From Fonticula-like sp. SCN 57-25 (lineage: Eukaryota): DNA of 49,760 bases. Made by a program: the position numbers and the translations under genes. The notes under the pieces were generated by a model. That model had not been told where the DNA came from. It searched no databases and was given only the letters and a program-made list of their open reading frames with translations. The stretch lies in the NCBI GenBank assembly GCA_001724245.1, contig MEDX01000078.1:1-49760 (forward strand). The letters run 5' to 3'. This document shows positions 2,663 to 44,292 of the stretch, in pieces; within the stretch, counting starts at the first letter, position 1, and each line of letters begins with the position of its first letter.

Positions 2663-5307
2663 CTACCAGGCGCCGCGGCCCCACGGGGCCTGCGGCTGGC
2701 CGGCCGGGCCCTTGATGGCAAAGCCCGGGGCGATGCCGGCCGCCGGCGCGGCGACCTGCGTGCCAAAGGTGAGCGGGTACGCGGGCGCGGGCAGCACCGG
2801 GGGGACGGCGAGGCGGATCGAGTCCGCCGGGACATCCTCCGAGTTGCCATAGTCCGTGTAGGTCACCGTGTACACGCCCGGCGCAACAACGGCCATGATC
2901 ACCGCGTTGTACCACTCCTTGTCCTCGGAAAAGCACGCCTGGACGACCTGGCCGACCTGGAACTGGGACGCAGTGCCAAAGGAAGGACCGGGGCGCGACG
3001 CGCTCGCGGGCTGCTCCTGCTTGACGGGCTGAGGCGCACCAAAGCGGAGAACCGGCGCGGCCTGCATGGCGGCGGGCGTGGGCGCGGCGGCGGCCGGAAC
3101 GGCAGCGGGGACGGCGGCCGGGGCAGCAGCAGGGGCGGCAGGGGCGGCATCGGCTGCGACGGCCGGCACGCGGATGCGGTCGCGGGGGATCACCTCAGAG
3201 TTGCCGTACTCAATGTACAGAACCTTGTACGTCTCCTGCGGGAGCACCTCCTTGATCTCGGCAGTGTACCACTCATTGTCCTCGGTGAACTGGGCCTGCA
3301 CGATCTGCTGCACACGGAGGGCGGGCTGCGCGGGGGCAGCAGCAGCGGGGGCCGGGGCGGCAGCGGCCGGGGCAGCAAACGGAACGGTCGCGGCGGCAAC
3401 AGCGGGGATCGTGTTGCGCAGCGACGCAGTGGGCGGAAGCGAAGCAACGAGCGACGCCATGTTGGTGAGGCCCTGCGGCGCGGCGGCGGCGGGGTACTGA
3501 GCATCGGCAAAGGCGCTCGACGGCGCCGCGGCGGCAGCGGGCTTGGCGGCAGCAGGCGCAGCGGCGGGGGCAGCGTCAACCAGGCGGATCTCCTCAGCCG
3601 GGAGGTTCTCCGCGTTGCCGTACTCGGTGTACTCGACGAGGTACGTCTTGTCCGCGTTGAAGGCGCGGATGACGGCCTTGTACCACTGGCGGTCCTCGCT
3701 GAAGCGAGCCTCCACAGCGGTGCCGACGGCATACGCGGGCGTAGCGGGGGCGGCGGGCGCCGGGGCGGCAAGGCCGGGTGGCGCAGTGCGAGAGATGGTG
3801 CGCAGGACGCTCTCCGAAAGGCGGCGCTGGAGGTCGTAGCCAACAAAGGTCGCGGTCACAGTGCCGTCGCCGTGGACGGCATCGATCTGGACCATGTACC
3901 ACTCCTGCGTCGACGGCTCGAGGGCCTCGACAAACTGGCCGGGAGTGAACTTAGGGGCGGCCGGGGCGGCGGCCGGAGCGGCCACGGCAGCGGGGGCAGC
4001 GGCAGGGACAACCGGCGCAGCAGCCGGGGCAGCGGCAGGGGCAGCGGCAGGGGCAGCGGCAGGGGCGGCAGCGGGGGTGGCAGTGGGGGCGGCAGTCGGA
4101 GCGGCGGCAGCGGGGGTGGCAGCAGCGGCGGCCTTGCGGATGGCCGACGCAGGCAGAGTCTCCTTGTTGCCATACTCGGTGTAGGTCACATCATACAGCT
4201 TGCCATCGGCGGACACGGCGTCGATGCGCGCCGCGTACCACGTGTTGTCTACGGTGTAGCAGCCCTCGACGGCATCACCCACCTTCCACAGCGCCGCAGC
4301 GATGGCAGCAGCCGGGGCGGCAGCGGCGGCGGCAGGGGCGGCGGTAGGCTGAGCGCTCGGGGCAGAGGAAATCGGCCGCAACGACTCGGCCGTAAGGTCC
4401 TCCTCATTCAGGTACTCGGTATAAACAACGTGGAATTTGGTTCCGTCCTGGCTGACGGCCGTGATCTTGGCCTTGTACCATTGCAAATCCTCTGTAAACA
4501 ACCCCTCGCACAGGTCGCCGACCTTCCACTTTGACTTTTCAGCAACGGGCTTGGACGGAACCAACGACGGGAGCGACACCGGGGCGGGCGCGGCGGCAGT
4601 CGGTGGCGGGGCGTCGGGCTTGCGCGCGCCTCCCCACTTTGACGCCGACGGCAGCTTGGCATCAGGCTTGACTGTAGAGGTGGCCGTAGGAATTTTAGGT
4701 GGCCCACCTGCGGAGCTCTTAGCTGGAGCAGGCTGTGTACGGGGAGCAGCAGGCGCGCTGGACACCGGGGCGGGCTGCGAGGGAGCCCGCGACGAGGTTG
4801 AATTAGACAAGTATTCGGCCGCCTGGTTCAAATCGTTATTAAACCGTTCGAGAGCTCGGCGGGCGCTCTCCGTATCAAAGCCCATATCAAACAGCTGAGC
4901 AACGTTCTTGTCCAACGCCGAAGCAGACGACTTGGAGGTTGACGACGGCGCCGAAGATGCCGACGCGCTCTTTGCAGGGCGCGCAGGCTCCGACGAGGCC
5001 GCCAGCGTGGTGAGATAATTCAATGCATCGTCAAAGTTGTTGTTCTTTGCGACCAATGCCGACTCGGCATCGCTCTGTTTAAAGCCAAAGTCCACCAAGT
5101 GCCCCACCAAGTATTTGTCCGCCACCGGTCCCTGCGGCTAAGAAATGCCGAGACCTGTCAGACACCGCATGCAAAGAGAAAAGCGAAAGGTACCTTTGGT
5201 TTATCCTCAACCACCTGCTTGCTTCCCTTTCCGGAAGCCTTCTTCTGCGACTGTGGAAGGGCGCTATTGCCCTGCAGAGCTTCGAATTGGTTCTTTTTGG
5301 TGGCCAT
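2663..5307 (-). CDS. Protein with two UBA domains and six SMN/TDRD3-type Tudor domains separated by Ala/Pro-rich linkers
   Basis: Exon 1 5307-5194 (MATKKNQFEAL...KPK), intron 5132-5193, then the long ORF. UBA1 LVDFGFKQSDAESAL..NNNFDDALNYL; UBA2 LFDMGFDTESARRAL..NNDLNQAAEYL. Six repeats of VG..x.A.F.ED..WY.A.I......Y.V.Y.EYGN.E......IR. Possible in-frame 42-nt intron 2756-2797. Confidence 0.88.
4017..4075 (-). repeat. 12-nt coding tandem repeat encoding (PAAA)n linker
   Basis: Plus strand gcagcggcaggg repeated about 4-5 times with variants. It translates on the minus strand as PAAAPAAAPAAAPAAAPAAA between Tudor domains 2 and 3. Confidence 0.8.
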
Positions 5308-7113: not shown

Positions 7114-10100
7114 CTAGTTGCCGACGGTGATGGCCTTCTTGCCGCGCGTCTCCTTCTCGAGGAGGCGCGAGCAGCGCTGCCACTCCTCCTCAAAGGTAGC
7201 CTTGGAGATCTCGGCATCGCGCTTGTCGAGGAGACCAGTCTCGGCGAGGGAGAGGTCGCACATCTGGGCGTCGTCGCGGCCGGCGATGAGGAGGACCGGG
7301 AGGCCGTCGGCGTGGGTCTCGAGCTGGCGCTTGATGCGCGGGCCCTCAAAGTGGGCCCACCAGAGGCCCTTCTTCTTGACCTGCTTGCCCTTAGCGTTGA
7401 CGATCGGGCGGGTGAACGGCACGCGGAAGAAGCGGTCGCCGGCAATGAGCGAGAGAATCTTGAGGACGGCCGGCGGCGGGGGGGGGATGATGACCTTCTT
7501 GTCGCGGGCCATCGTGGCCTGGCGCTGGAGGCCAGAGGCGGCGGCCGGCGGCGGGCCAACGGTGCGCGGGACGGCGGTCACCATCGGGACAACACGAGGG
7601 GCAACCGAGCGGACCGGGCGCGGGGCCTCGCGGACCTGCTGCATCGGGACGGCGCTCTCCTGGGGAGCCTCGTCGCCCTTGTCGTACTTGGTCTTCCAGC
7701 TGTAGTACGCCTTGAGACGCTTCTGGAACTCGTTGCGGCAAGCCTGGAGCATCTCGACGTCGCTCGACGTGTTGATCGTGTCGCGGAGCTGGGCATAGCT
7801 CCACTTGGACAGATCGTAGACGGCGCCGCTCTCGGTCTCGACAAACTCGACCTGGGGGGTCGGGCCGGCATCGGCACGGAAGTCGACGGCGTCGGTCTGG
7901 TGGTTGTCGCGGGCAAGGCGGGAGGCAAGCTCCTCGTCACGGCGAGCCTGCTCAACGCGCTCGGCCTCCTCGCGGAGAGGGCCCTCGTTCTTGGCGGCTT
8001 CGGCGGCGGCGGCGGCGGCCTGAGCCTCGAGCGACTTCTGAAGAGCATCCTCGTTCTTCTCGGCCTCCTCCAGGCGGCGAACCTCCTCGGCGTAGCGGGC
8101 GCGCTCGGCAGCGGCATCGGCGGCGGCCTTCTTCTCGGCCTCCTCCTCCTCGCGCTGGCGCTTCTCCTCGGCGGCCTTGAGGGCCTCGAGGCGCTGGCGC
8201 TCCTTCTCGGCAGCCTCCTTGGCCTTGCGCTCCTTCTCGGCGGCCTCGCGCTGGCGGGCAAGCTCGATCTCGTGAGCAATGCGGGCCTGCTTGAAGGTCT
8301 CGATCTGGTGAACGAGGTTCTTGCGGGCAATGAGGGCGCGCGAGATGGTCTGGACGGTCACACGGGCCTCCGCGCGGTACTTGATCTTGCCCATAAGACG
8401 CTGGCTCGCGATGGCGGCATACATGGCACGGCGCCAGCGCTTCGAGGTGAGGTAGCGAAGGACCTTGGCGATAAGGACCTTGGACATGGACTCGTCCTGG
8501 CGGGTAATCTCATCGAGAAGGGCGTACTTGCCGGCGCGGAAGAACACCTTGGTGAGACCGAACTGGAAGTCGTTGGCGTTCGAGCCGAGCGAGAAGATAA
8601 GCGCCTCGCAGAAAGTACGGGGCGAAAGAGCCTGGAGCTTCGGGGGAAGGAGAACCTTGTACTGGTCGTACAGCGACTGGAAGTCGGTACGGGACGGGAA
8701 ACCCTTCTGCATGAGCTCTAGGGCCTCAAGCATACCACCGCAGTGGAGCTGCTGGAGAACATCGACACCGTCGAAGAAGTTCGGCACCTGCTTGAAGTTG
8801 GGCTTGACGCAGCGCACGAAGTGAGCGTTGGTGGTCAAAAGCTTGCCCATCAGCTCCTTCATCTGCTTCTTGAACTTGGCACCAACCGAGAAGAAGCTAA
8901 GCTTGCCGGGGGCGGCCTTCTCCTCAGCGGGGATGCTGTCGATGAGCGCCTTGACGAACGGAACCGAGCTGCCAGCGAGCATCGTCTCCATATCAGTGTG
9001 GAGGGCATCGTTGTTCTTGTCGATGAAGAACGCAGTGTTGTAGCACACGGCGCCGGCATAGTGGCGCACGAGGAAGGCCTCGTCGTCCTTCAACTTCTGG
9101 TTGGACTTGAGGGGGGCCTTGCGCGGGCCGCTGAACTTGGGGTGCTTGCCGTGCTTGTCGTGCACGGTGGTGGTGAAGCGCTTGTCGTTGGCCTGAGGCA
9201 TCTTGGTCTCCTCATCGAGAAGGGCAAAGATACCCGTCTTGGGGTCCTCGATGAGCTCGATGGCGTCATCGTTGTTGAGGTACTCAATGGGGTCGACGCG
9301 GATACCTTCCTTGCGGTAGATGTCCTGCTCCTGCTTGAGGACCTTCTCGTTGAAGAAGCCCTGGAGCTTCTCGTTGCAGTAGTTGATGCAGAACTGCTCG
9401 TACGAGTTGTTCTCAAAGTACTCGAAACCGGCAATATCGAGCACACCGATGAACGACGACGAGGAGGTCAGGGGGAGCGAATGGTTGATGCGGGCAACGA
9501 GCCAATCGAAAAGGTTCTTGTAGACGGCCTTGGCGAGAGCATCGCGGGCAGAGAGGGCGTCAACGGCCTTGAGCTCCTTGCGAATAGCAGCGCCCTTACC
9601 GACAGCGGACATCATGCGAGTGGTGAGCGCCTCCTTGAACTTCTCAACGTCGCAGCCGAGCAGGCCAGCGGCAACAGCAGCCGGCTTGTAGGCGCCAGCG
9701 GGGTCCTTGACGACCGAGCCACCAGCGGTGGTGCCCGACGTGGTCTCCTCGAAATCAATGTTACCAATGTGGAGGACAGCGGCGCAGACGCTGAGGGCAC
9801 CGTTGATCTCCTCGTCAGACAGACCAATGGTCTTGAAGGCGCGGAAGGTGTTGTTGAAGTGGGCAACATCATCAAAGCCCTCAACGGTGACGCAGTTGGC
9901 GAGGTAGCGGAAGTCCTTGGCAGGCATGAGAGTGAAGGCAGCCTTCTGCTGGACCGACGCACCGGCGCACAGCTCGTAGAAGATGTGGTAGTTACGCTCG
10001 TCAGCGTTCTGGGTGACGATACGCGACTTCTCGAGGAGGTAGTGGGAGATGGCAGCACCCGACAGCTTGAAGTTGTTGTCGAAGTGGATCTCGGTGAACT

Positions 10101-10987
10101 TACCGAAGCGCGACGAGTTCTTGTTGCGGATGGTCTTGGCGTTACCGAACGACTCGAGCACGGGGTTGGCCTCGAGAATGGTCTCCTCGAGGGAGGAGAG
10201 GTGGCCGTCAACACCGCCGAGGTTGGCAAGGTACTTCATGATGAACTTGCAAGACTCCGTCTTACCAGCACCAGACTCACCAGATACAATGATGGACTGG
10301 GAGAGGGTGGTGGCCTTCATGGCACGGTAAGCGTTGTCCGCCACGGCGTAGATGTGGGGCTCCTCCTGACCGATGGACTTGCCGCGGTACTTGGTGAGGT
10401 ACTGGCCCTCAAAGATCGGGATATCCTTGAAGGGGTTGACGGCAACAAGAATGTGCGCGGTGTAGGTCTGTAAAATGCCCGATGAGCGACACATTCACCC
10501 AACTCAGTCATCACGCACGTAAATCTTGTCCTCCTTGTAGCGGAGGCGCAAGTTGTTGAGGAGCGAACCAGCATGGAGGTACATGAGCTGGGTGTTGTCC
10601 GCAAACGCAGTGTTCACCTGCGACTTGTGAGCCGGCAGAGCCTTGTTGAGCGCCACATGAGTGGAGCCGCTGCCGTTCTAGCAAAACAAGTCAGCCTCGC
10701 TCATTTGAACGCATCGCCCACAACGAACCTTCTTCTCAACGACAAGCTCATTGGCAGCGATGTCGACGATCTCACCAAGGACATAGCCCTCCTACAGCGC
10801 AGAACCACAACATGTCAGTGACAAAACAAGCGACAAAATTAAGCTCCGAGGTCGAGCCGTACAGTGTTGTCCGGAACTAAAAGAAAAAACCAAAGCGTTA
10901 GCAAACTGTGGCAACCGGAGGCAGGCCCGCAGGCCGCCGCGAGCGAGGGGACGTACTCCAGACGAGCTCGCTGGTGATGCCGGCCAT
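7114..10987 (-). CDS. MYO6: Myosin VI (class VI unconventional myosin)
   Basis: P-loop GESGAGKT, NPVLESFGNAKT..N.NSSRFGK, LDIAGFE. Insert-2/IQ region WRRAMY..KIKYRAEAR, E/R/K-rich SAH, MIU-like EQARRDEELASRLA, MyUb YDLSKWSYAQLRDTINTS..EFQKRLKAY, cargo-binding domain KKGLWWAHFEG..MCDLSLAETGL. 5' introns 10877-10956, 10792-10862, 10678-10728, 10468-10518 restore the N-terminus MAGITSELVWIPDNTEGYVLGEIVDI. Confidence 0.95.
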
Positions 10988-20293: not shown

Positions 20294-20843
20294 AAAGAGA
20301 AGCAATGTTTTCGTACATGAAATCAAATTTTTACCAGTTTATATGAATGAAACGTTAGTACAACGCCCCGCGCTCAACCCCGGTACACGTGTACCCATAC
20401 AGAACCTAGTTGCATGGCCCTATACCGGTATGTTAGTACTGTCTATATATTCCTACTAGTGCCAGCGATGCCTTTGGATGTTGCGCTTAGGCCGCGCACG
20501 GTCCAACAGAGAAGTAAGAAGAGAAGTACCTCTGATGGCAGAGGCTGATTGCGTGAAGGGAAGTGCGTGGTGGGCCAAAAGAATCATTACGATCCACAGC
20601 CCTGACACAGCAATTCTTTATGGCCATATTGACTCATTTCAGCCGACGGCGAACATGTGAATTTTTGGTCACATAACGATTTCACACGATCGTTTTCGGC
20701 ACCTGTGATTGGCCACAATTAAACATTGAGAATATGAGAGCCTTACCGATAGTGTCTAAATCGGGTACCATCTCAATCCTGTCTCAATCGTCGAATCCGA
20801 ACAAGAAAGAGTCGTTTTTTCCTTGCCCTGGCCTGCGAACACG

Positions 20844-23800
20844 ATGCGGGGCGGCACCTGGAGCATGCGCGCGAGCGTGCTCTTGCTGCTGGCTGCCTAG
20901 CTGCTGGGAACTTGTACGATGCCGTTGAGATGTTTTAAGTGTTTTCTTGCTCACCAAAACGAAAGCAGTCGCGCAGCAAAACACGTTCGTGTCCACGTCT
21001 GATGCCACCACGACGTTGTCGTACCAAGCATCGCGAAATTTCCGCGCCGGCGCATATGCTGTTGCTTGCCAATCGTCCTGCTCTACTTTTTTTATGTATT
21101 ACGCGTACACCTGGGGAACAGGCTCTGCTCCGCAGGACGTAGCGTACTGTACTATGGATTCGACATGAGCGAGAAAGCGGTGTGGCTTTTTGTGTGAAAG
21201 GCTCTCTCGTTGCTAATACATCGACGTCTCCTTGCAGCCCGACCCGTCCAGGTTTTGCGCGTCCGGTACTCCCCAGCTTTTCCTTAGTTACGCCGACAGA
21301 TCCCGGTGGTATCCAACGTTCACGACAACTGTCACCACCGATATTCCAATCTACACTATGTACGCTGACATTGCCGCGGAAAGGCGCCAGTTCTAATCAA
21401 TGTGTACCTATAGCAACTTTGCCACGATTACGTGGAATAGTCAGCCACCCCTGACGTCTTACGTTGATCGCGTTTATTCCTCTACGTACACGTACTCTGC
21501 ACTGTACGAGTCCCTTTCACGGCACTCCCGTGCTCATGCCCGTTCTAGATTCTGGAATTACATTACGCTTACCGCCAGCTTCCTCAATGCTGCTGTTCGC
21601 CAATCAAACACCAAGGTTCGTTTCTCATTATAAATTGTGAATGTTATTATGCTAATTTTGTCTATTGGTAGATGACGATTCGAAACTTTTACCCCGCGTC
21701 CTACGAAGTGCCGTGGTCGACCCACACTACATACGGTGGTAATTTCAGGCCCTACCTTCAATTTGACTACACCACTTGCCACGTCAATGCCCAGTGCATC
21801 AATAATGTCTGTGTCTGCAACCTTTACTACTCTGGATCCGGAGCTGCGTGCACCTGTACGACACTTTTCATCTCATTGGATCACTAGTACTAATCGCGAC
21901 TGCCATATCATCAGATTCTGCTTGCGCGGCGAGGACAGCCGGCAACGCCAACTTTGGCCTTACTGCCACTGGCGTTACCGCGTACGGCACATGCGCCGTT
22001 GGCTTCTTAGCAAGCGGCGGCACTCCCACGTCTGTGTGCACCAACACAGTTTGGGGAGGTGTTTCCAACCCTTGTATTGGTACGTGAACACAGATGTTAC
22101 TTTGGAATCTTACACGTGCTCCTCCAGCGGCGACGTGCAGCGCTGACAATTCGGGATCCGTTGGCTTTGCCCGGTATCCTCTCACCAACGGCGGCAATAC
22201 CGCCACGGGCTCGTGCATCAGCGGATATACCGGATCCGCTTCCCGCCTGTGCCAGACCAACGGGCAGTGGGCCGCAACCGCTACCGTGTCGTGCAGTCGT
22301 ATCAGGTGCCCGGCCGCTTCCATGGGCAATGCCAACTTCCCGGCCACTGACAGCATGACGACCGGGAACGGAGTGTGCACCAGCGGCTACTCGGGGACAC
22401 CCACGAGCGCGTGCTCGGATTCCGGCACATGGGGCACCGTCGCCAACGCCTGCACCCGTACGAACACAGTGTTGAACCGTGACAATGCTAAGTGTGACGT
22501 GCAATAGGCATCCGATGCGTTGACTTTATGGACACTGCTAACAGCGTGAACTGGCCTACTACCGATTCTCTGCTGGAGGCTACCGGGACGTGCTTTGCTG
22601 GATTCGAAGGAGCTCCTAAGCGTATGTGCGAGGCGAACGGAGCGTGGGCTGCCGGCATTTCGGGATCGTGTGTTCAACTTGCATGCTCTGTGCAGCAGGC
22701 GTTCAAGAACGCCGACTGGCCGTCCACTCTGTCGGGAGCTACTGCGACCGGAACGTGCGTGTCTGGCTACGGCGGCACGACCCAGCGCCAGTGCAAGCTG
22801 GACGGCACCTGGTCCGATGACGTGTCGCCTGCTTGCGCGAGGAACGTCTGCCCCGCTGACACGTTCGGGAACGCGACCTGGCCCGCCAACACCCTGTCGA
22901 TGACCTCCGCGGTCGGCACGTGCGTCGCTGGGTTCACCGGCAACCCCTCGCGCGCATGCAACGCCGATGGCTCGTGGTCGTCGTCGATCACAAACCCATG
23001 TGTGCAGCTGTTCTGCCCCGTGACTCAGCTAAATGACGCCAACTGGCCGCACACTGCCGCCGGCACTGCGAATGTTTCCGGCGAGTGCGTCTCCGGCTAC
23101 AGCGGCTCGCCCGTGCGCGGCTGCGATCTGAACGGCAACTGGCAGACCGTGACTGTCCCATGCACGCGCAACCGCTGCGACGCTGTGACGGAAGGCTTTG
23201 CCAACTGGACCGCGACCGATTCGCTCACGTCGGTTTCCGCCACGTGCCAGGCCGGCTACCAGGGCAGCCCGAGCCGTACCTGCGGCGCCGATGGCACTTT
23301 TGGTGAGATCATCAACCCCTGCCAGCGCATTATGTGCAGTGCGCACAACCAGGACAATGCGCAGTGGTCAGACACTGGATCTGGCGTTCCCGCCAATGGT
23401 GTTTGCGACCTTGGCTGGACCGGCTCGCCGACGCGCGAGTGCAGCATCACGGGAACGTGGGGCTCTATCGTGTCGTCTTGCACGCGCATCACCTGCGCTG
23501 CCTCCAACGATTCGTCTGCGCAAGCGCTCTTTCCCGCGGCCAACGCAGGTGACTCGAATGTTGACGGAACTTGTTATGATAACACGTCTGGATTCCCTGC
23601 ACGCGACTGCTTCTATAACGGCACGTGGTCCGAGGTGAGAAACCCGTGCAGCACCAACCCCTGCCCCGCTCTTCTCAACAACGGCCACGCTGATTGGGAT
23701 AGCCCCAATGCCGTCGACCAGCTCGTGAATGGCACGTGCGTGGCCGGCTACGACACGACCCTGCCGCGGCCGCAGCGCATGTGCAAGGGCAATGGTCAGT

Positions 23801-26800
23801 GGGCCACCGAGATCACCAACCCATGCCAGCCGCTGTTCTGCACCAAGTCGTCGCCCAGTTACTCTCCGTTCAACGCCGAGTGGCCCGAGTCTGTGCAGGC
23901 CGGCTCCTCGGCGTCGGGCACCTGCGCCGCGGGCTACTTTGGCACGACCGCGCGCGCTTGCTCCCTCGCGGGCGAATGGGGCACCCCGTCGCCGGCATGC
24001 CAGCCGATCCAGTGCGCCGCCATTGGCAACGACGGAGCGCACAGCTCGTGGCCGCAGACACAGGCCGGCCAAAGCGCCTCGGGCACGTGCCTCGCGGGCT
24101 ACGAGGGCGCACCGACGCGCCTGTGCAGCATCACCGGCCAGTGGGAGGAGGTCTCGTCGCCCTGCGCGCAGAAGAAGTGCCCGGCCGGCACGATCTCCAA
24201 CAGCATGTGGAATGAGACGCTCGGTGGTCTTTCGGCCACGGGCATTTGCGTCCCTGGGACCACCGGCACGGTCACGCGCTCGTGCTCGACGGACGGCATT
24301 TGGGGCCCGGTGGTCGGCTCGTGCGTTGGTGTGCTTTGCCCCGCCGAGACTGTGGGCAACGCGGAGTGGCTAGAGACCCCCCAGGGCAACGTTGCCACGG
24401 GCTCATGTGTGGTCGGTTACGGCTCCTCTTCGACACCTAGCCGTGCCTGCCTTGAGAACGGCGTGTGGGGTGCCATCACCGGCTCCTGCATTCGCCTCCA
24501 GTGCAATGCCGATACCTTTGACAACGCCGAGTGGCCGCAGGTGGACTCTATGACGGACGGCATTCGCGGGACTTGCGTTGCCGGGTGGCAGGGCGCTCCC
24601 CTGCGTAACTGCTCGGCGACCGGCCTGTACTCTGCTGTTACGAACCCATGCGTCCGCATCACGTGCCCGCCCCTCGAGGGCGAGTCCGGCGCATGGCCGT
24701 TGGTCAATGCTGGCACGCTCGGCGTGGAGGGCACCTGCCCGGCCGGCTCTGATGGAACGCCTGTGCGCAACTGCGCGATCGACGGCACATGGAGCGCCAT
24801 CGTCAGCGGCGACTGTGTTGCTCGCTCTTGCCAGGCCGAGACCTCTGGCCAGGTTAGCTGGCCGGCAACCCCGGCCGGCGGCGTGGTTGGCGGCTCGTGC
24901 AGCGAGGGCTACTCTGGCAGCCCTTCGCGGTCCTGCTCGTCGGTTGGCGAGTGGGAGGCCATTGTGAACCCCTGCGTTCAGAACGTGTGCCCCGCCGTCA
25001 CCGACGGCCACGTGGAGTGGCCTTCGACGCCTGCGCTGTCGCTCCCGGTGGAAGGTGTGTGCGAGCTTGGCTTCTTTGGCAACCCCACCCGCACCTGCGA
25101 TGCCGATGGCAACTGGGGCGCCATCTCGGACCCGTGTGCCCCGCTTCTGTGCGCGCCTGGTTTTGCTGGCAACGCCGATTGGTCCGCGACCCCGGCAGGG
25201 CAGAACGGCGTCGGCAACTGCACCGCCGGATACGAGGGTGCCCCAATGCGTGCTTGCCTTGCCGATGGCTCGTGGAACACGACGATTGTCAACCCCTGCC
25301 GGATCAAGTATGATGATTGCCCCAGCTCTACTGTTGGTATGACTTTCTTCCCCCGCGCTGAACCCGGCGAAGCGGTCAATGGCACCTGCCCGACCGATTT
25401 TATGAACTCTGAGTATGGCCCGCCGTATCGCCAGTGCTACGCGAACGGGACGTGGGAGGCCGAGTATAGCAACCCCTGTGTGCTCGTCCCCATTGAAGTG
25501 TCGGGCACCCTGTCAAACTTGACTTGGGTGAGCAAGACGTCCACCGAGGTGTCGCTCACATGGACCGCCATCAACATGACCGTGAACACGACGTTCCGCG
25601 TCGAGATCGCTGTTGGAACCAGCGCGTTTTCGATCGCGAACGGCGGAGATGCCGTTGGGCTCCTCACTCCCAGCGCCGTCATCAAGAACCTGTTCCCGAA
25701 TACGGTCTACCTTTTCCGCGTTTCCGTTGGTGGCAACCGTGGCTACGACGAGCTCAACCATTTGACGCTTGCGGTCAAGACTTACATTGCGCCCGCCTCT
25801 GGCCTGAAGCTTGACTTGGCCGAGGACGACAAACTGACGTTCTCCTGGACTGCCTCTCCGCAAGCGCAGTACTACGAGTCGTACTACCGCTTGGTTGACA
25901 CCACCTCTCGTGCAGCCACTGATACTTTCACGTTCTCCGAGCGCGTGGATGCCAGCGCTGGATCCATGACGGTGGGCTCGCTCGAGCCTGGTCGCTCGTA
26001 CGAGATCCTTCTGCTGTCGGGTCTGAACAACGAGACGGAGCAGGTTGGCGCTCGCATGACTGTAAGCACGACCTCGTCGACCGAAAACATTGTTGAGGAC
26101 CCGAGCCTTGGCACCAATGGCACGATCATTGCAGCCGCCAGCGCGGGAGCAGTTGTGGCTCTTCTTGTGATTGTGGCTATTGTTGTGGTAGTCATCCGCC
26201 GCCGCCGCCGCCAAGCCAAGGAGACGCTCGATCAGTATGGTGGTATGGAGGCATTGCAGACTATCCAGATGTACAACAAGACGCTCGCTCGGTCGCGCAA
26301 CAGCATGAGCCACGCGGACTCTACGACCCATTTGCAGGATGCTCACCAGACTATTGTGAACACTGTCCTGGAAGTTGCTCTTCCTGGATTCCTGCTCGTC
26401 GAGTTTCCCGTGGCGGTGCGCCCTGGTGCAGTGTTCCCGGCCAGCAGCAGCAGTACTGCGTACGCGGCCACACTGCTTGATTCGACGCTTTCGCAGCGCA
26501 TCGGCACCAACGATGTAGCGGTAAAGGAGTTTATTGCCAATCCTGATCTCACTGACGAGGTGAATACTGACCGCTTCCATTCGGAAGTGGCGCTTATGTG
26601 GTCGCTGTCGTTCCACCCGAACGTGATCAGCCTTGTCGCGTACTCTGACGAGCCGCGCGCCATGATCACTCGCCTCTACCAGACTGATTTGGAGTCGTTC
26701 CTGCACTCGCAGGGCGATGAATCCCCGCTTTCTTCTACTCTGCTGCTTCAGCTCGCGACCGGCATTTCGTCTGGTCTGGCTGCAATTCACTCTCTCCACG

Positions 26801-27273
26801 TGGCCCACCGCGACCTGCGGTCGTCCAACATCCTGCTTCAGACTCCGCCGGACCACTCTGAGTTCCTGACCGCGGTCGTCGGCGGCCTTTCGGCAACGCG
26901 CACATCTGCGGATGAACTTTCGACTCTCAAGATGACCAGTGCTCTGCGCTACGCGTCGCCGCAGGTGTTTGGCCACATGGACCACCTCGATGTGGACTGG
27001 CCGATTGAGGAGGACATGGCCAGCGACGTGTACTCTCTCGGCGTCGTGTTCTGGGAGATGTGCGAGCGCCGCACGCCATGGAAGGATATGCCCGACATGG
27101 ACATTGGCAGCAACGTGTCCGACGGCCGCTTCCTCGAGGTGAACGATGACAGTAAAGACAGCGTCCGCTTTGAGCTCGCGGCTATCATGCGCCAGGTGTT
27201 TGTTGTCGAGGCTGCCGCTCGCCCGTCCGCCTCAGAGGTCAACGCTCGCGTCAACGCCCTTGCCAGCGAATAG
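20844..27273 (+). CDS. Type I membrane receptor pseudokinase (TKL-like): signal peptide, DNRLRE-like domain, EGF, 21 Cys-rich HormR/sushi-like repeats, 2 FN3, TM, degenerate kinase; in-frame TAG at 20898-20900
   Basis: Introns 20914-20965, 21139-21237 (weaker GTAGCG donor), 21360-21413, 21504-21548, 21616-21671, 21856-21914, 22080-22127, 22458-22507 join the 5' exons to the 22528-27273 ORF. TM AGAVVALLVIVAIVVVVI followed by RRRRR. Kinase motifs VAVK, HPNVI, HRDLRSSN, SDVYSLG..WEM...PW. Confidence 0.85.
21915..25482 (+). repeat. 21 tandem 52-60 aa Cys-rich extracellular repeats
   Basis: Consensus C-x(5-10)-A-x-W-P-x-T-x(6-7)-G-x-C-xx-G-[YF]-x-G-x-P-x-R-x-C-xxx-G-x-W-x(5-6)-C, counted 21 times in the spliced translation. 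Confidence 0.85.
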
Positions 27274-27733
27274 ACCCCGTTTTGGATGGCATGTTTTTTG
27301 CTTTCGTTTATTATTTTCCGCTATATATCCTTACAGCGTCGCTGCGGGCGCGCTATTTCCGCGTCCTGTTCTATTGCACGTTGTTATATTTTAATAAAAG
27401 TTGCTGATATCATTATCCAGTTATTCATGCTATATTATTATGCTCGTATGTCCATTGGATGCTTTAGGTCTTCTTCTGTGACAGGGCTCGCGTTTTTATC
27501 GTCGATTATGGCCATGTTCATATTTTTGTAGTGCCAGTGCACCCCGGTACAGTCAACGCGTACATTTGTGACCGGCCAAAATCCCTAGTATGCGATATAT
27601 TAATGAAAAGACAATATGATACCGGTGCATACTGTATAATCGATATTTTAGGACTTTGAACAGCTTTGGCTTTGAAAGTCGCAAAACATTCTACCATGAA
27701 CTGGTTTGTGCCGGTGTTGCCCTGACCAGCGCG

Positions 27734-29698
27734 ATGGCGCCGATGGCCACCATGTGGATGCATATTTTGGTGATTCTGCTGGCTGTGCGCCTCTCGCATG
27801 CCTCTTTGACACCGACCTATATAGTGGACATTCCGACGCGCGACAATAAGACGCTCAAGGCGGATGTTTATGTTCCTGCCGGAGTATCACCGGACAAGTG
27901 GCCGACAGTGCTGATCCAGACGCCGTACAACCGTAAGCTATACCGGGTGGCGGGTCTGCCGCTTGGTGTTGGCGACGACATTGATGATAGCGCGTACGCA
28001 TGGGTTATCCTTGACTGGCGCGGGTTCTTCGACTCTCGCCCGGCGGCCAACGTGACGGGAGCAATCAAGCGAGGCGAAGATGGGTTCGACGCCGTTGGGT
28101 GGATTGCCGACCAGTCGTGGAGCAATGGCAAGGTTGCGACGTGGGGCCTCTCAGCTCTCGGTCTTATTCAATATCAGACGGCGCGGGAGAACCCCCCGGC
28201 CCTTCGGTGCATTATGCCCATGGTGTCGTCGCCCGTCACTTCGTACTCGAGCTACCTGCCCGGCGGGGTGGCGCGCACCGAGTACATTGACCAGATGGAC
28301 GCCCTTGGGTACGGCGTCGGCGCCTCTGTCTATGGCAACCCGTATCGCAACGTTTATTGGAATCTGGCCGAGTCGTCGACAACGTACCATGATTCGATCC
28401 TCGTGCCCGCGCTGCTCCTCTGTGGGTGGCACGACCACAACGTGGCGGCCATGATCGCTGATTACGCAGCTCTGCGCGGCAGCGGCACCGCCGTCGCGGA
28501 CCAGCACCGCCTTGTGTTTGGCCCGTGGTCGCATAGCACGGTAGACGAGAGCACCGTCGGCCAGCTGAGCTTTTCAGGCGCCGAGGGTTACGCGACGGAG
28601 CGAATGGTCGAGTGGCTCGACTGGTGTTTATTGGGAAACTCGTCCAGCACGGCCCCGACGCGCCCAAACGTCTCCTTTTATCAGATGGGCGAGGGCGAAT
28701 GGCGGTCGGCGTCTGCATGGCCTCCGTCGGCCGTGGGCTCCCTGCGCCTGCGCCTCACCGACCAAGGTGGCGCTGTCGAAGACTTTGGCGCGACATCGGC
28801 GTCCATCTCGTCCCACGCGAGCCTGACGTACGATCCGCGGTCTCCTTCGCCGACGGTGGGCGGCGCGACGCTTGACTCGTCGCTTGATCAGGGCCCGTTT
28901 GACCAGCAGCCGGCTGTCGAGTCGCGCAATGACACGCTCGTGTTCTCGACCGGAACTCTCGCGTCTGCGCTGCGCGTCCAGGGCGCCGTGCAGGTGACGC
29001 TAAATGTGAGCTCGTCGCAGGTTGACTCTGATGTGGTCGTGCGCCTCACCGACGTGTACCCCGACGGGAGGTCGATGCTGCTCACCGAGGCGCCGCTGCG
29101 CCTCAAGATGCGCGGCGGGTTCCGGCAGCAGGATGTCGCGCTCCTATCGCCCGGCGCGTTTGTGAGCGTCACCCTCACGCTCCCCAGCGTTGCAAACACT
29201 TTTCTCCAGGGGCACAAGATGCGCATTATTGTCACGGGCTCCAACTTTCCGCGCTATAACCGCAACAGCAACAATGGCGTTGACCCAATGTACCCGGGCG
29301 CGGCGGGCGATGGCCTCGTGACGCCTGTCAACGTGGCCGTCAACACCTTTTCGCTCGACGGCTCGTCGTTTATCACAGTGCCGACAGACGGGCCTTTCGA
29401 CGTGACGCCGGACCCGCCAACGACAACACCGCCGCCGGGAACAACGCTGCCACCTACTACTCCGCCGCCTACTACTACTCCCCCACCTACTACTACACCA
29501 ACACCTACTACTACACCAACACCTACTACTACTATACCACCTACTACTACGCCGCCAGGGACTACACTGCCGCCGACAGACCCGCCGGGCAGTTCGCCGA
29601 CGCCCACTTCCGCGGCTGGTGCGACGCGGCCGTGGACCTCGGCCATTGTCGCCTCTGTGGCAATATGCGCGTCGCTCTTGCTCCATTGGAAGCGTTGA
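27734..29698 (+). CDS. Secreted CocE/NonD-family (peptidase S15, alpha/beta-fold) hydrolase with Pro/Thr stalk and GPI-anchor-like C-terminus; intronless
   Basis: Signal peptide MWMHILVILLAVRLSHA. Motifs IPTRD.KTL.ADVY, TVLIQTPYN, DWRGFF.S, EDGFDAVGWIADQSWSNGKV, nucleophile WGLSALG, GWHD, GPWSH, YDP.SP.PT.GG, DSDVVVRLTDVYPDG, SNFPRYNRN. Hydrophobic C-terminus after SAAG. The start may be any of the ATGs at 27734/27743/27752/27758. Confidence 0.9.
   Translation: MAPMATMWMHILVILLAVRLSHASLTPTYIVDIPTRDNKTLKADVYVPAGVSPDKWPTVLIQTPYNRKLYRVAGLPLGVGDDIDDSAYAWVILDWRGFFDSRPAANVTGAIKRGEDGFDAVGWIADQSWSNGKVATWGLSALGLIQYQTARENPPALRCIMPMVSSPVTSYSSYLPGGVARTEYIDQMDALGYGVGASVYGNPYRNVYWNLAESSTTYHDSILVPALLLCGWHDHNVAAMIADYAALRGSGTAVADQHRLVFGPWSHSTVDESTVGQLSFSGAEGYATERMVEWLDWCLLGNSSSTAPTRPNVSFYQMGEGEWRSASAWPPSAVGSLRLRLTDQGGAVEDFGATSASISSHASLTYDPRSPSPTVGGATLDSSLDQGPFDQQPAVESRNDTLVFSTGTLASALRVQGAVQVTLNVSSSQVDSDVVVRLTDVYPDGRSMLLTEAPLRLKMRGGFRQQDVALLSPGAFVSVTLTLPSVANTFLQGHKMRIIVTGSNFPRYNRNSNNGVDPMYPGAAGDGLVTPVNVAVNTFSLDGSSFITVPTDGPFDVTPDPPTTTPPPGTTLPPTTPPPTTTPPPTTTPTPTTTPTPTTTIPPTTTPPGTTLPPTDPPGSSPTPTSAAGATRPWTSAIVASVAICASLLLHWKR
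29413..29585 (+). repeat. About 18-nt coding tandem repeat encoding the (PPTTTP/PTTTPT)n mucin-like stalk
   Basis: Recurrent cctactactac(a/t/g)cc units, e.g. acacctactactacaccaacacctactactacaccaacacctactactact. Confidence 0.85.
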
Positions 29699-30340: not shown

Positions 30341-30469
30341 GGCTCGCTACCTCCTCCGGTGGCAAGCGATGAGCGGGCACGTCGGTTGATGAAACGATCA
30401 CGTGGCCTTAAAGTGGTAGATTTGTGATTGTGGCGGGAAGGGTCCCCTGACGGCGCGGATCGATAGGCC

Positions 30470-33400
30470 ATGCCGTGGCTTGCGCGCACGTCGCTGCCTG
30501 CAACAGCTGTAACCAAGTGCGCTTCATTGCGGAGCGCAGATGGCTATTCGTGGGTAGTTTTAGCCACCGAGTGCACGCTTGAAGTGTGCGTATTAGATGA
30601 GAGTGAACAGCTAGAGACGGTGTCCTCGCTTCCCGTCTTTGGCATCGTGCACGACGTTGCCGTTCTTCGCTGGGATGCGGGCCCGACGGCCACCGAGTTT
30701 TTCGAAAAGCTTTCCCCGACGGCCCTATCTGAGGACCTTTTGGTTGTTTCGACCGACGCATCCGTCCTTTGCGTGCTAACCGTGTCGAATGATGGCGCGC
30801 TTTCGCTCGTCCGCGAGGTTCCTCTGACGGATGACGTCGGTGGCGGGGACGGAATGCTGATCAAGAACGCGCTTATTGCTTATGATCCCGACAGCTCTGC
30901 CTTGGCCGTCTGCGCGCTGACCGAGGCCGTAGGCGTCATTCTTGCGGGCGCGGATGGGCTCACGACTGTGTCCGTCAACTTTCAAGGATGCTCGATCCTG
31001 AGCCTTGCTCTGCTGCGCCCTCATGTTCTAAACCCAACTAAGCTGCCGCTTGTCGCCCTAGTGAGCCGCGCTGGCGACGCCAACGTACAGCTGTGCGTCA
31101 TTGAAGTGGACCGCCAGCTGCGCACGGCGGCGCTCCGGAGCCGCGTCGTTGCGCCGCCCTCGCACTTTCCGCACAAGGTGGTCGCGCTACCGCACATGCC
31201 GCAGCACTGCCTCATTGTGGCGGATAACGCAGTGTGGCTTGTAAACGTGGCGCACTTGCCGTTTCCGGCACCAGGGCCGCCTCCGAGACTCTCCCCGCTA
31301 AAGTCGGCAACGTACCCAAGACTGCCGCCGGGGTCAAGGCCGGACATCGTCTCCTTTGTCAACGCCGCAGTTGACGATACAAGCGATATCGCGCAACCGA
31401 TAGTATACCTTGGGCTTTCTTCGTACGTTTTCTTTTTTTGTCCGGTGTACCATGAAGCTCTGTTTTGGTCCATTCTTGCCTGGCTACTTCCCATTAGGCT
31501 CTCTGGCGAATTGCTATTACCGATTGACCATTTAGTATATATATTATTATGATTGTTCTCTTGCTGTTTTGTTCCATCTTTTGTTGTGCCTTTTTTGCTA
31601 AGAGTTTTTTCCTTTCCAGTGGCGATGTGATTTCACTGGAAGTGGACGGCACGAGTACTTTTGATCTGACCTGGATCGCGCGCGTTCCTCCCTTTGACCG
31701 CCTCTTGGCGCTTGGCTCCTACCGCCTCTTCCTTCCCTGCTGCACCGCCGACGCGCGCCTGCTTGTTCTCGACCCGTCTCTCGCCGAGCCCCCCCGCGCG
31801 TCCATCTGCCGCCCCAATCGCTCCCCGATCCTCGACGCGCGCCCCATGCCGGCTCCCGACGCCGGCGGTGACGACGCGCTCCTTGTCGCCTGCGGCATGC
31901 AAGGCGGCGGCTCGGTTGACGTAATTAGAACCGGGTTGGTGTGGAACGCGTTGACGTCGAGCGGGGGCGACGGCAGCGGCAGTGGCGGGTTTCAGGGCGC
32001 CACGCGCGTCTGGGCGCTTCGCTCAGTTGGCGCCGCTCATCACTCGCTGCTGCTCTTTTCGTTTGTGACTGGCACGCGACTGCTGCGCCTTGACCCGTCG
32101 GGGGAGCTGGCAGACATTTCCGACGCCGCGGGGATCGACCAGCGAGCGCCAACGCTGTACTGCTGCGTGTGCGGATCGTTGGACGGCGCCGATGTCGTCG
32201 CACAGGTGACGCCGCGGGCGGTCGTGTGCCGCGGGCGCACCGTGTGGACGCCACCAAACGCCGACGGTGGGGCAGGAAGCGAAGAGATCACGGCGGCCGC
32301 AGCCGCGGGTGGGCTGCTGTTTGTGGCGTACGGCAGGTCGGCCGCCGCGGCGGCCATTGCCGCGTTGCCGCTGAGCGGTCTCTGCGACGACTCGGCGGTG
32401 GCGATTGCCGTGGCGCACATTGCCGTTCCTGCCGCCGTGGCGCTCATGACGACCGTATCGCTGTCTGCAGGCAGCGATGCCGACGAGGAAAAGTGCGCGC
32501 TCGTGGTGGGGACGTTTGCCCCCAGCCTGCTTGTGTTTCATGTGAGGGGCGTGGGAGCCGGGGCTGCTCCGGTTGCCGACATTGATCTTCAGCATGTTGA
32601 GGCGGGCAAGGTGGCCGTGCCGCATAGCTGCGATGTGGTAGTGGAGATGAGCGGCGGGGCGACGGGGACGAATGCCGAACTGTCACTGGCAGTCGGGCTG
32701 CGTAACGGCGTCGTGGCGTTCTTTCCGATCCAAGGCGAGGCGATTGCGATGACGGCGCGGCACACATACGCCGTCGGTCGGTGCGTAATTTTGCGATATC
32801 TTTGTGTTTTTTGCGCGGATATCTGCATTTTATGTGTGTTGTTTCTGTCGTGTCTAGCGTCTTTTCTATTTCTCATTGGTCTTTGTTCTTCTTTTGCAGG
32901 TCGCCCGTTCGCGTTGCGTCGTGCATTTCGTCGGAGCGCGCGCACGTGCTTGCCATGTCGGACGACGCGTGCCATGTTCTCCGCTGCACGCGTTCCCTCG
33001 GCGTGATTGCCCTCCCAGTACAGACGCAGGACGCGCGCGTGATCGACGCCGCCCGCTTCTCGCTCGACTTTTCTCCCGACGCGTTCTGCGTCGTCACCTC
33101 GGACGCGCGCATGTCGATTGTGACGCTGGACCCCCGCGGCGGCCTCATGTCGTCTCGCCGCCTCGCCGCCTTTAACGCGACCGTCTGGCGTGTCCTCCCG
33201 CTCCGGCACTCGTTGCCGCACTGCGCCGTGGCTGTGCTGCGGCGGCCAGAAAAGGCGTGTGAGCTTGTTTTTATCGACACGCGCACTGGGCACGTCCGCG
33301 GAACATTCTCGCGGCTCGACGGCGGTGCCGCCAATTTCATGGACGACATGGTGGTGCACGCGCTGGCGGAGCTTCCGGACGGCCGCCTGGCGGTTGGCGG

Positions 33401-34385
33401 GTCGCATCGCGGCGGCAGCGGCTTTGTCATTCTGCTTGACGTCCGCGCCAACGACGACGAAATTGCTGTTACACAACTGAGCGCTGCGCGGACGGGGGCG
33501 CGCGTTCCTGCGCTCTGTGTTGTGCGAGCGGCCGATGGCGGCGCGCTACTCGTTGCGGGCCACGGGAACGTTCTTGCCGTGCTGAACGAGAGCGATGGCG
33601 CAATCGTCGAGCTCTGCCGCGCGTCTGTGCAGTTCCGCGTGCGCGCGGTCTACTGCTCGCCAAACGGCGACATTATCGTGGCCGACGCGCGCAGCTCCAT
33701 CACGGTGTACCGCATGCGGCAGCAGGATGACGGTGTCGTATCGCTGGCCGTGGCGGCCACGGACCCGCACTTTCGCCTGGGCGTCAGCATCACGGCGGTG
33801 TACGACGATGGCGACGGCGGCGCCCAGGTCGCCATGTCGGATCTCTTTGGAAACGTCATGTGCATCGACGCGTCGGCGGCGTCGGCGGCGGGTGAGTCGG
33901 CAGGACACCCCGCTGTCGCCCGCACGACGGCGTACTTTTGCGTTGGCGCACCCGCGCTGCGCGTTGCGTCGCTGCGAGGCCGGTCGTGGAGCGCACTCGT
34001 GGCGCTCACGACGCTAGGCTCGGCCGTAACTCTGACGCCGGTCGGCGAAGAGGCGTACGCGCTGCTGCGGGCGGTGGACGCGCTGGCGCCGCAGACGTCG
34101 GCGTTTGGGACCGACAGGGCGGCGTTCAGGCGCGGGCACGCAGAGGCGGCGAGCGGAGTCATCGATGGGGACGCACTTGCGGGAATGACGCGGGAGCAGA
34201 TTGCAGACGTCGTCGAGGCATTCAACGCGCTGCCGCGGGAGGAGGACGAGGAGCAGGAGGGCGCGGCCGCGTGGGCAGGCAGGTGGAGGAAGCGGCAGGC
34301 GGACAGGGGCGAGGCGGATACTCTTACCGCCGATTTCGTCACTGTTCTCATTGACTATTTTTGCCATTTCGTGTACTCTAGATGA
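30470..34385 (+). CDS. Divergent DDB1/SF3B3/CPSF160/Mms1-family triple beta-propeller protein
   Basis: N-terminal LETVSSLPVFGIVHDVAVL..DLLVVSTD, NRSPILD..ACG..GSVDVIRTGL, VWAL..LLLFSFVTGTRLL, LAVGLRNG, C-terminal GVIDGDAL (CPSF_A-like). Introns 31423-31619 and 32781-32899. Confidence 0.75.
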
Positions 34386-43961: not shown

Positions 43962-44292
43962 ATAGGGCGAAATTCAATACAGTACCTTGTGAAATGAGCT
44001 TACTTATACATTTGACGCGGTTCGCTTGGGATGGCTGGCATGCCCAATTATAGAACATATAATGAAAAAAAAATGATGCATTGCACAAAGTGCTCAAATG
44101 GTGCAGCCTAAACATACCCCTCGCATTTGTTACAATGTTTCGACACTTTTTCTTCGGCACATTTCCGTAACATTTCAGTGTCTGTGCCATTTCTTCAGTC
44201 CAATCAGTCCACCCCCGATTATGTAAAATCACCCCCCGATTCAGCCCTGTGTTTATAGTTTGCGCGGACTTGCCCCTCTTGGGGCCGGCGGC

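Follow-up and report, generated by a model that had tools for sequence, protein, structure and literature searches.

The subject of this analysis is a window of 49,760 nucleotides (contig MEDX01000078.1 of assembly GCA_001724245.1, from Fonticula-like sp. SCN 57-25) and, within it, a spliced gene on the forward strand that ends at position 27273 and is predicted to encode a receptor-type pseudokinase with a long array of small cysteine-rich modules. From the N to the C terminus, the predicted product is organized as a head of no recognized family, a knot resembling epidermal growth factor (EGF), 21 modules of ~50 residues, two FN3 domains, one transmembrane helix, a juxtamembrane motif and a kinase domain of the tyrosine kinase-like (TKL) type. 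The repeated module belongs to the sushi superfold, of which it is a minimal form on the branch shared by HRM and the cysteine-rich domain (CRD) of Eph receptors, and carries the hallmark residues of HRM; it is not a canonical HormR domain. We consider it reasonably probable that the gene is real and multi-exon, that it comes from an uncultured protist of opisthokont or apusozoan type, known here from metagenome DNA, and that it encodes a type I receptor of ~2000 residues, assembled by exon shuffling, in which the array would be combined with a pseudokinase that pairs with active relatives.

The array is sharply delimited. Segmentation of the spliced product by cysteine quartets yields exactly 21 modules with the spacing C-x22-27-C-x11-15-C-x11-13-C, joined by linkers of four residues at 19 of the 20 junctions and of six residues at the remaining one. 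A hidden Markov model (HMM) built from the 21 repeats recovers all of them, every one within this gene, and a six-frame search with it found no further repeat copy elsewhere in the window. An earlier reading made from the letters of the DNA without database searches (hereafter, the sequence-only reading) had counted 21 four-cysteine tandem repeats, a number that the cysteine spacing and the HMM reproduce exactly, and had placed two FN3 domains, one transmembrane helix and a kinase fold behind them, which are recovered as two Pfam fn3 matches, a hydrophobic helix and a PK_Tyr_Ser-Thr match. When single repeats are aligned, the four cysteines are invariant, and conservation reaches 90% or more at G25, G30, G33, R37, G43 and W45; in a loose script count, WP follows the first cysteine in 10/21 repeats (another aromatic residue takes this place in the rest), R-x-C occurs in 19/21 and G-x-[WFY] in 20/21. 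Pairwise identity between repeats ranges from 23 to 57% (median 36%), with no excess for neighbours or at any lag, and Tandem Repeats Finder detected no DNA-level tandem repeat within the array; the only repeats that it found, of 18 nt and 3 nt, lie at 26153-26212. Because identity is low, adjacency has no effect and no DNA-level repeat is present, the array must be old, and neither a chance pattern nor the product of a recent amplification.

Among the Pfam families, the module scores best as HRM. In a Pfam scan of the whole long-exon product, HRM ranks first (140.9 bits, E 1.6e-41, 13 stretches), with Ephrin_CRD at 48.6 bits (5 stretches) and Sushi at 35.6 bits (E 1.3e-8, one stretch); the respective gathering cut-offs are 26.2 bits (HRM, PF02793), 27 (Ephrin_CRD, PF25599) and 20.7 (Sushi, PF00084). 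For single repeats, the best family is HRM in 13/21 and Ephrin_CRD in 5/21, three match no family, Sushi is never the best, and HRM is listed for 16/21. The same product gave no match to GPS/GAIN or 7tm_2 at E up to 1 in Pfam, and none to Ephrin_lbd or SAM. Repeat 21, which adjoins the FN3 pair, matches the ectodomains of CRFR1/2, PTH1R, GLP1R and the GHRH receptor in phmmer (best E 2.3e-4); compared with the CRF receptors, the aromatic-Pro site, the second cysteine, R-x-C and G-x-W are aligned, and a Phe replaces the cysteine of C-W-P. The behaviour of the Pfam profiles was compared with that in nineteen large matches of the library search. Seven of these are true arrays of complement control protein (CCP) modules, in which Sushi scores 1177-2446 bits and HRM does not exceed 69 bits or is absent; eight are HRM-type arrays of the same family as the window protein, in which HRM scores 44.6-243 bits and Sushi does not exceed 49.4 bits or is absent. 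Sushi/CCP modules pair their cysteines 1-3 and 2-4, carry a Trp between the third and the fourth cysteine and are joined by linkers of a few residues, while the hormone-binding ectodomain of class B G protein-coupled receptors (GPCRs) has six cysteines in three disulfides and an N-terminal helix. Each of the 21 repeats has four cysteines, and this count, the position of the Trp and the four-residue linkers fit the description of Sushi/CCP.

The predicted fold points to the Eph receptors. AlphaFold2 models of repeat 19 (pLDDT 97.2) and repeat 21 (pLDDT 95.1) consist of strands only, with no helix. With Foldseek against the PDB, Eph ectodomains occupy each of the 17 top listed rows (ranks 1-18; TMq 0.77-0.86), ahead of class B GPCR ectodomains and latrophilin. 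VIA-align against 48,161 chains places the CRD sushi module of EphA2 (199-262) and EphB2 (195-256) at the top for both models, with Z 8.5, 8.4 and 8.2 (EphA2) and 7.2 (EphB2) for repeat 19, and Z 8.6, 8.4 and 8.0 (EphA2) and 7.7 (EphB2) for repeat 21; these matches cover 54/54 and 56-57/58 residues at an rmsd of 1.2-1.8 Å and an identity of 18-28%. The next tier, from Z 4.8 (repeat 19) and 5.5 (repeat 21) downwards, is a mixture of HormR domains, class B ectodomains and CCPs, in which the HormR and class B matches (Gpr126, VIPR2, GCGR, PTH2R, CELSR1 and latrophilin-3, Z 4.0-5.5) stand level with the CCPs (C1s, PAPP-A, DAF and factor H, Z up to 5.5) and below the Eph CRD. It is this gap of ~3 Z units, together with the full-length fit, that gives the Eph CRD match its weight.

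Behind the array, the closest PDB sequences to the FN3 pair are FN3 domains of fibronectin, Robo and the leptin receptor, and these matches reveal no Eph-specific affinity. The kinase domain is recognized by Pfam as PK_Tyr_Ser-Thr (84.7 bits) and Pkinase (72.7 bits). The PDB kinases closest to the window copy are CTR1, B-Raf, KSR and IRAK4, all of the TKL group, to which the active relative P0013 is also closest, with tyrosine kinases slightly behind; the window kinase scores 48.2 bits against CTR1 versus 39.9 against EphB2, and no Eph receptor is found among the 60 best matches of P0013.

Catalytic motifs were compared in an alignment of 11 proteins that carry the same cassette of FN3 pair, transmembrane helix, juxtamembrane segment and kinase. 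In the window kinase, the Gly-rich loop is replaced (26437-26463), the beta3 Lys (26515-26532) and the alphaC Glu are kept, HRDLRSSN is kept with its Asn (26806-26829), DFG has become GGL (26875-26895) and APE has become SPQ. With the Gly-rich loop and the DFG Asp both missing, the domain is predicted to be an inactive pseudokinase, as the sequence-only reading had proposed. The three nearest relatives (P0003, P0007 and P0014) are likewise devoid of a Gly-rich loop, the DFG site across the four proteins reads GGL, SGF, SDF or SNL, and P0007 and P0014 have lost HRD as well. The loss is common to the window copy and its nearest relatives, which are 42-66% identical in the cytoplasmic region; it is therefore an old loss that has been retained, and not a private decay. 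GxGxxG, HRD and DFG are all kept in P0013, P0015, P0016, P0017, P0146 and P0147, and the active relatives carry a catalytic loop of the Ser/Thr type, HRDxK; a Fonticula alba TKL kinase (P0148) keeps the Gly-rich loop and HRD, with DLG instead of DFG. The juxtamembrane motif NTVLEVALPGFL is recognizable in 11/11 of the aligned proteins, more divergent in P0015 and P0148, and can serve as a signature of the family. As a side observation, P0007 and P0014, both with degenerate kinases, are each recorded with a longest contig of 40,540 bases; they may therefore be paralogues that lie side by side in the genome of a relative.

The family is sizeable and its parts are combined in several ways. A word-based search returned 24 relatives, unnamed except for one animal sushi-array protein (E 6.7e-34), and HRM, FN3 and kinase occur together in eight of them; with E up to 1e-30 as the limit, an exhaustive library search gave 124 representatives, of which many are fragments. 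Relatives P0003-P0013 hold 12-30 modules within the available pieces (21 in P0013). Compared with P0003, which is 81% identical, the window protein conserves 72/72 cysteines and 40/41 Trp residues, and the array is 87.6% identical, the FN3 pair 79.5% and the kinase 67.2%. HRM-type arrays are also joined to subtilase, to a proprotein-convertase P domain with CHRD, to He_PIG and to Big_5, and the FN3-transmembrane-kinase cassette is also found with VSP/furin-like cysteine-rich ectodomains. The closest named kinase relative, a Fonticula alba 'TKL protein kinase' (32% identity), has a VSP-like ectodomain and not an HRM one. The phase 1-1 exons that encode repeat 1 and repeats 2-3, together with the varied partner domains, fit an assembly by module shuffling. 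Two further observations concern these relatives and the communities from which they come. In P0015 and P0021, Ephrin_rec_like cysteine-rich repeats (GCC2/GCC3-type) lie N-terminal to the array, with segments of ~200 residues without Pfam match in between. In two metagenome runs, the summed contig depth over parts of 22800-24200 reaches up to ~10x that of the flanks, and many contigs are 90-95% alike; many related array genes or strains are therefore present in the same communities.

The gene model, whose features are collected in the table below, was developed from a long open frame of 1591 codons (22498-27273, forward strand) in GC-rich eukaryotic DNA. Upstream of this frame, four GT..AG introns of 48-59 nt, recognized by eye and then by script, add three exons in frame, and the repeat pattern is unbroken across them in the spliced product. 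The extended model comprises seven GT..AG introns of 48-99 nt and a single frame open over 1980 codons; the intron donors are GTACG, GTTCG or GTAGC and the overall intron GC is 0.27-0.50. Exons 5 to 8 are well supported as predictions, through the continuity of the protein and the relatives. Exons 2 to 4 are predicted from open frames, GT..AG splice sites and a modest GC content at third codon positions (GC3; 0.56-0.63, versus 0.76-0.79 in exons 7 and 8). A Pfam scan assigned the head encoded by exons 2 to 4 to no known family, and its interpretation as a recognizable lectin-like domain was dropped, the by-eye likeness of exon 4 to the head of P0021 having failed in BLASTP (E 3.3). The EGF-like knot precedes the array in P0021 (E 1e-5) and P0017 (E 4e-4) as well. 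The predicted protein has type I topology, and its very large ectodomain is rich in cysteine and contains 17 N-glycosylation sequons. Myosin VI, encoded elsewhere in the window, and the short GT..AG introns bear out the origin from a unicellular eukaryote that had been suggested from the letters.

Table. Predicted features of the receptor-type pseudokinase gene (positions in the window; all on the forward strand)
Feature	Positions	Strand	Basis and remarks
Candidate exon 1	20844..20913	+	70 nt, signal-peptide-like; ends in phase 1, fitting exon 2; donor GTACGA; GC3 0.87
Exon 2 (model), start of N-terminal head	20966..21138	+	Frame continuous with downstream exons; GC3 0.60; no Pfam match
Exon 3 (model), head	21238..21359	+	Acceptor CAG, donor GTACGC, open frame; no Pfam match
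Exon 4 (model), head	21414..21615	+	Open frame; donor GTTCGT; no credible Pfam match
Exon 5, end of head and EGF-like Cys knot adjoining the array	21672..21855	+	Weak EGF_MSP1_1/EGF_3, E 0.005-0.006, below cut-off
Exon 6, repeat 1	21915..22079	+	Phase 1-1
Exon 7, repeats 2-3	22128..22457	+	Phase 1-1
Exon 8, repeats 4-21, two FN3, transmembrane helix, juxtamembrane segment, pseudokinase, TAG stop	22508..27273	+	Single open frame
Array of 21 four-Cys modules of HRM/Eph-sushi type, two introns inside	21923..25485	+	Cys segmentation, own HMM, Pfam, AlphaFold2 models
Two FN3 domains	25480..26079	+	Pfam fn3, 2 stretches
Transmembrane helix (26125-26196) and RRRRRQ stop-transfer (26197-26214)	26125..26214	+	24 hydrophobic residues, then five Arg
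Juxtamembrane motif NTVLEVALPGFL, family signature	26359..26394	+	Alignment of 11 cassette proteins
Predicted TKL-like pseudokinase domain	26377..27270	+	Pfam and motif alignment

From these elements, a working model of the receptor can be proposed. Each module would be held by two disulfides in the predicted pairing, and the fixed short linkers would make the array a long, extended structure, whose length would be tens of nanometres if it resembles CCP arrays and given the usual size of such modules. The sequence-only reading had pictured the array as a rigid stalk that would carry a distal ligand-binding head; the head predicted here matches no known family. Along its length and at its tip, the array may offer binding surfaces for ligands or for other surfaces. 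In the cytoplasm, the predicted pseudokinase would not phosphorylate; in analogy to the kinase-dead receptors of animals, it would signal by pairing with active paralogues that share its FN3-transmembrane-juxtamembrane-kinase cassette. The gene itself may have arisen by exon shuffling, through which phase 1-1 module exons were joined to the cassette.

Several observations weigh against this reading. At the level of the modules, the HRM cut-off is exceeded by only 2/21 single repeats (repeats 18 and 21), the Ephrin_CRD and Sushi cut-offs are reached by none (Sushi maximum 20.3), and the profile of the 21 repeats finds complement CCPs first among PDB sequences, at least as well as HormR domains. 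In that search, CR2 and C2 owe their lead to the sum of many domains, factor B is also among the best matches, and the best single domain (22.8 bits) spans the module's C-terminal two thirds; the HormR domains of latrophilin-1 (20.8 bits) and BAI3 (20.1) cover the N-terminal two thirds, and EphA2 and CRFR1 stand just behind. The equation of the Cys/Trp pattern with HormR/HRM in the sequence-only reading thus holds in part: HRM is the leading Pfam family, repeat by repeat it is preferred to Sushi, and repeat 21 aligns with class B ectodomains, but few repeats pass the cut-off, each has four cysteines and no helix is predicted. The same is true of the fold, which differs from an ordinary CCP but is closest to the Eph CRD sushi module and not to HormR. 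The fold evidence is itself qualified, as both AlphaFold2 models were built with the same 21-row repeat alignment and are not independent, Foldseek gave no match at E up to 0.001 (the Eph rows have E 0.0076 or worse), and best Z values of 7-8 are common for small models, a caution that accompanies VIA-align. In the kinase, the retained Lys, Glu, HRD and Asn might permit nucleotide binding or an atypical catalysis. The disulfide pairing, the rod shape, the ligand and the pairing with active paralogues are all things that we infer.

The 5' end and the expression of the gene belong to the same side of the balance. The sole in-phase signal-peptide exon contains an in-frame TAG (20898-20900) as its codon 19, which may reflect a nonsense allele, a mistake in the assembly or a wrongly chosen start. 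Hence, of the span 20844-27273 originally proposed, the end stands as that of a spliced plus-strand gene and the start is doubtful, since the exon opened there carries the TAG. Among the variants listed for contigs of four metagenome runs, none falls on this codon, and a metagenome contig of 17.5 kb that is identical across 20500-21613 may be the window's own source. A scan for alternative first exons gave five candidates, of which only 20414-20513 has a hydrophobic segment, and its use requires an atypically long intron of 452 nt. The 20 runs that contain the locus include no RNA run, all being DNA metagenomes (from bioreactor, wastewater, aquatic and other sources), and splicing and expression are predictions.

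Four other explanations deserve to be weighed. It is very unlikely that the repeats are ordinary sushi/CCP modules, so that the gene would encode a CCP-array surface protein with a kinase tail and the HRM score would reflect profile cross-talk. The precedence of CR2, C2 and factor B in the profile search speaks for this, as do the CCP hallmarks of four cysteines, a Trp between the third and the fourth of them and short linkers, the whole-protein Sushi E-value and the match to an animal sushi-array protein; however, Sushi stays below its cut-off in 21/21 repeats and is never the best family, true CCP arrays score in the opposite way, CCP folds do not exceed Z 5.5 versus 7.2-8.6 for the Eph CRD, and class B ectodomains align at the aromatic-Pro site and at R-x-C, both of which the repeats share with HRM. 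A clear score and fold of ordinary sushi/CCP, which the sequence-only reading had set against its own proposal, was therefore not found. The fold match invites a different view, namely that the family is a true relative of the Eph receptors and inherited the Eph-type order sushi-FN3-FN3-transmembrane-kinase from a common ancestor. Both modelled repeats are indeed closest to the Eph CRD sushi module, Ephrin_CRD scores 48.6 bits in 5 stretches, the two FN3 domains, the transmembrane helix and the kinase follow in Eph order, and Ephrin_rec_like repeats occur in P0015 and P0021. Moreover, the consulted portions of two publications (PMC6485061, PMC6993872) describe 'proto-Eph-like' fn3-transmembrane-kinase proteins, some of them named TKL kinases, in filastereans and choanoflagellates, without the sushi/EGF cysteine-rich region. 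We nevertheless hold common descent with the Eph receptors to be most improbable: the kinase is nearer to CTR1, IRAK4 and B-Raf than to any Eph, and no Eph appears in the best 60 of P0013; the active relatives have the Ser/Thr-type HRDxK, Ephrin_lbd and SAM are missing from the Pfam matches and the FN3 domains are generic; and the cassette also occurs on unrelated ectodomains, which points to shuffling.

The two remaining alternatives concern function. A recently disabled locus, in which the nonsense codon in the signal peptide blocks secretion and translation and the decay of the kinase is part of the same process, would account for the TAG in the only in-phase signal-peptide exon, for the metagenome contig that is identical over this region and for the vanished catalytic motifs. 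Such a locus is unlikely, as a further 1980 codons are open across seven introns, the cysteines are kept 72/72 relative to a protein of 81% identity, the motif loss is shared with relatives and hence old and retained, an alternative hydrophobic first exon is at hand (though with the 452-nt intron), and the window itself may derive from the identical contig. Alternatively, the protein could be mainly an adhesion molecule, or one that recognizes prey or substrate, with the pseudokinase as a mere scaffold or anchor that does not pair with active kinases. The better conservation of the array than of the kinase (87.6% vs 67.2%) would agree with this, as would the occurrence of the same type of array with partners that do not signal (subtilase, proprotein-convertase P domain, He_PIG and Big_5), and long CCP arrays of animals bind ligands along their length. 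We give this option little credence as well, because the degenerate subclade has preserved the kinase fold, Lys, Glu, HRD and the juxtamembrane motif throughout; this preservation suggests that a conformational or docking function, linked to the active cassette family, has been conserved. The array-bearing receptor with a pairing pseudokinase, assembled by shuffling, is thus the reading that we prefer.

The neighbouring genes provide the genomic context of this receptor. A Myosin VI gene (7114-10494, reverse strand) consists of one frame of 1126 codons with motor and cargo-binding domains, and its closest named relatives are those of Capsaspora (51% identity), a filasterean record in EukProt (44%) and then animals; a look-up of this gene in the Atlas gave broad animal clusters only. 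The gene can help to place the host. Directly downstream of the receptor gene, a frame of 692 codons (27620-29698, forward strand) with Peptidase_S15 and PepX_C corresponds to a hydrolase of the X-Pro dipeptidyl-peptidase/CocE type. At 30467-34385 (forward strand), three consecutive frames match the first and second beta-propellers of RSE1/DDB1/CPSF1 and the CPSF_A region; they probably belong to a single gene that is interrupted by introns or by shifts of the frame. At 44227-49486 (forward strand), a frame with SacI homology (Syja_N) is followed by one of 1351 codons with a SAC9 GBDL domain; the two likely form a single gene for a SAC9-like phosphoinositide phosphatase. Finally, a frame of 824 codons at 2663-5137 (reverse strand) contains UBA, SMN-type Tudor, Agenet/SAWADEE-like and Tudor domains.

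In the literature, HRM is known from the adhesion GPCRs of animals, choanoflagellates and filastereans, where, in the consulted portion of a 2025 eLife survey (PMC12716839), it always stands beside GAIN. The same portion reports it as absent from all non-holozoans surveyed, with Fonticula alba, in which five or six membrane proteins other than GPCRs contain HRM, as the one exception; it leaves horizontal transfer, ancestral presence and convergence all open. The receptor kinases of choanoflagellates, according to the section consulted of another study (PMC10263333), have ectodomains unrelated to those of animals. Our literature search brought up no account in which an HRM array is combined with FN3, transmembrane helix and kinase. 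The claim of an unfamiliar receptor class agrees with this search result as far as the architecture goes; HRM in non-GPCR membrane proteins outside Holozoa is already in print, for Fonticula alba, in the available text of the survey (PMC12716839). What is described here is a set of known module types in an undescribed arrangement, and its new element is the match to the Eph-type sushi module.

The origin of HRM is an open point, to which new material is added by a protist family whose proteins each contain 12-30 HRM-type modules in tandem, in arrays that are linked to kinases, proteases and Ig-like domains. On the models, the minimal module would be structurally the same as the sushi module of Eph receptors. 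A tentative proposal, which we regard as doubtful, is that the four-cysteine modules represent the ancestral free-standing form, later fixed by animals as single copies in two receptor classes: as HormR, with the gain of a helix and a third disulfide, and as the sushi module of the Eph CRD. If this were true, the order module-FN3-FN3-transmembrane-kinase would have been present, earlier than the Eph receptors, in a lineage of protists that belongs neither to animals nor to choanoflagellates, the origin of HRM would move before Holozoa, and, among the three options found in the consulted text of the survey (PMC12716839), 'homologous and lost from most holomycotans' would be favoured. The sequences reported here are suited to a phylogeny of the modules, which could decide between transfer, ancestry and convergence and test the link between HormR and the Eph CRD. 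In addition, they document a conserved subclade of predicted pseudokinases inside a protist receptor-kinase family.

Compared with the HRM/HormR domains (PF02793) of secretin and adhesion GPCRs, the window modules share the aromatic-Pro site, R-x-C, G-x-W, a sushi-like fold and the best Pfam family. Unlike them, they are present in 21 copies, have four cysteines each and no N-terminal helix, and are not accompanied by GAIN or 7TM, whereas class B ectodomains have six cysteines and a helix. HormR of GPCRs is a single copy N-terminal to GAIN and 7TM in the consulted part of the survey (PMC12716839), while the array of the window protein precedes FN3 domains, one transmembrane helix and a kinase. 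The non-GPCR transmembrane proteins of Fonticula alba with HRM, as given in that part (PMC12716839), are the sole printed case that we found in which HRM occurs both beyond Holozoa and in proteins other than GPCRs. The Eph CRD sushi module (PF25599) is the best fold match and also precedes two FN3 domains, a transmembrane helix and a kinase in its own receptors. In Eph receptors, one sushi module has the ligand-binding domain on one side and an EGF-like module on the other, and the cytoplasmic part comprises a tyrosine kinase and SAM, as described in the portion consulted (PMC6485061); the window protein differs in its 21 modules, in having no Ephrin_lbd or SAM match and in its predicted pseudokinase of TKL type. 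With the CCP arrays of CR1, CR2 and factor H it has in common the head-to-tail modules of ~50-60 residues with two disulfides, the short linkers and the mutual recognition of profiles. In contrast to these arrays, its repeats are never best matched by Sushi, behave oppositely in Pfam and find CCPs in the second tier of fold matches, and the array is mounted on a receptor-kinase cassette. A further parallel would be offered by EphA10/EphB6 and ErbB3, kinase-dead members of receptor kinase families, which likewise combine an intact ectodomain with a degenerate kinase and have active relatives that share the same cassette.

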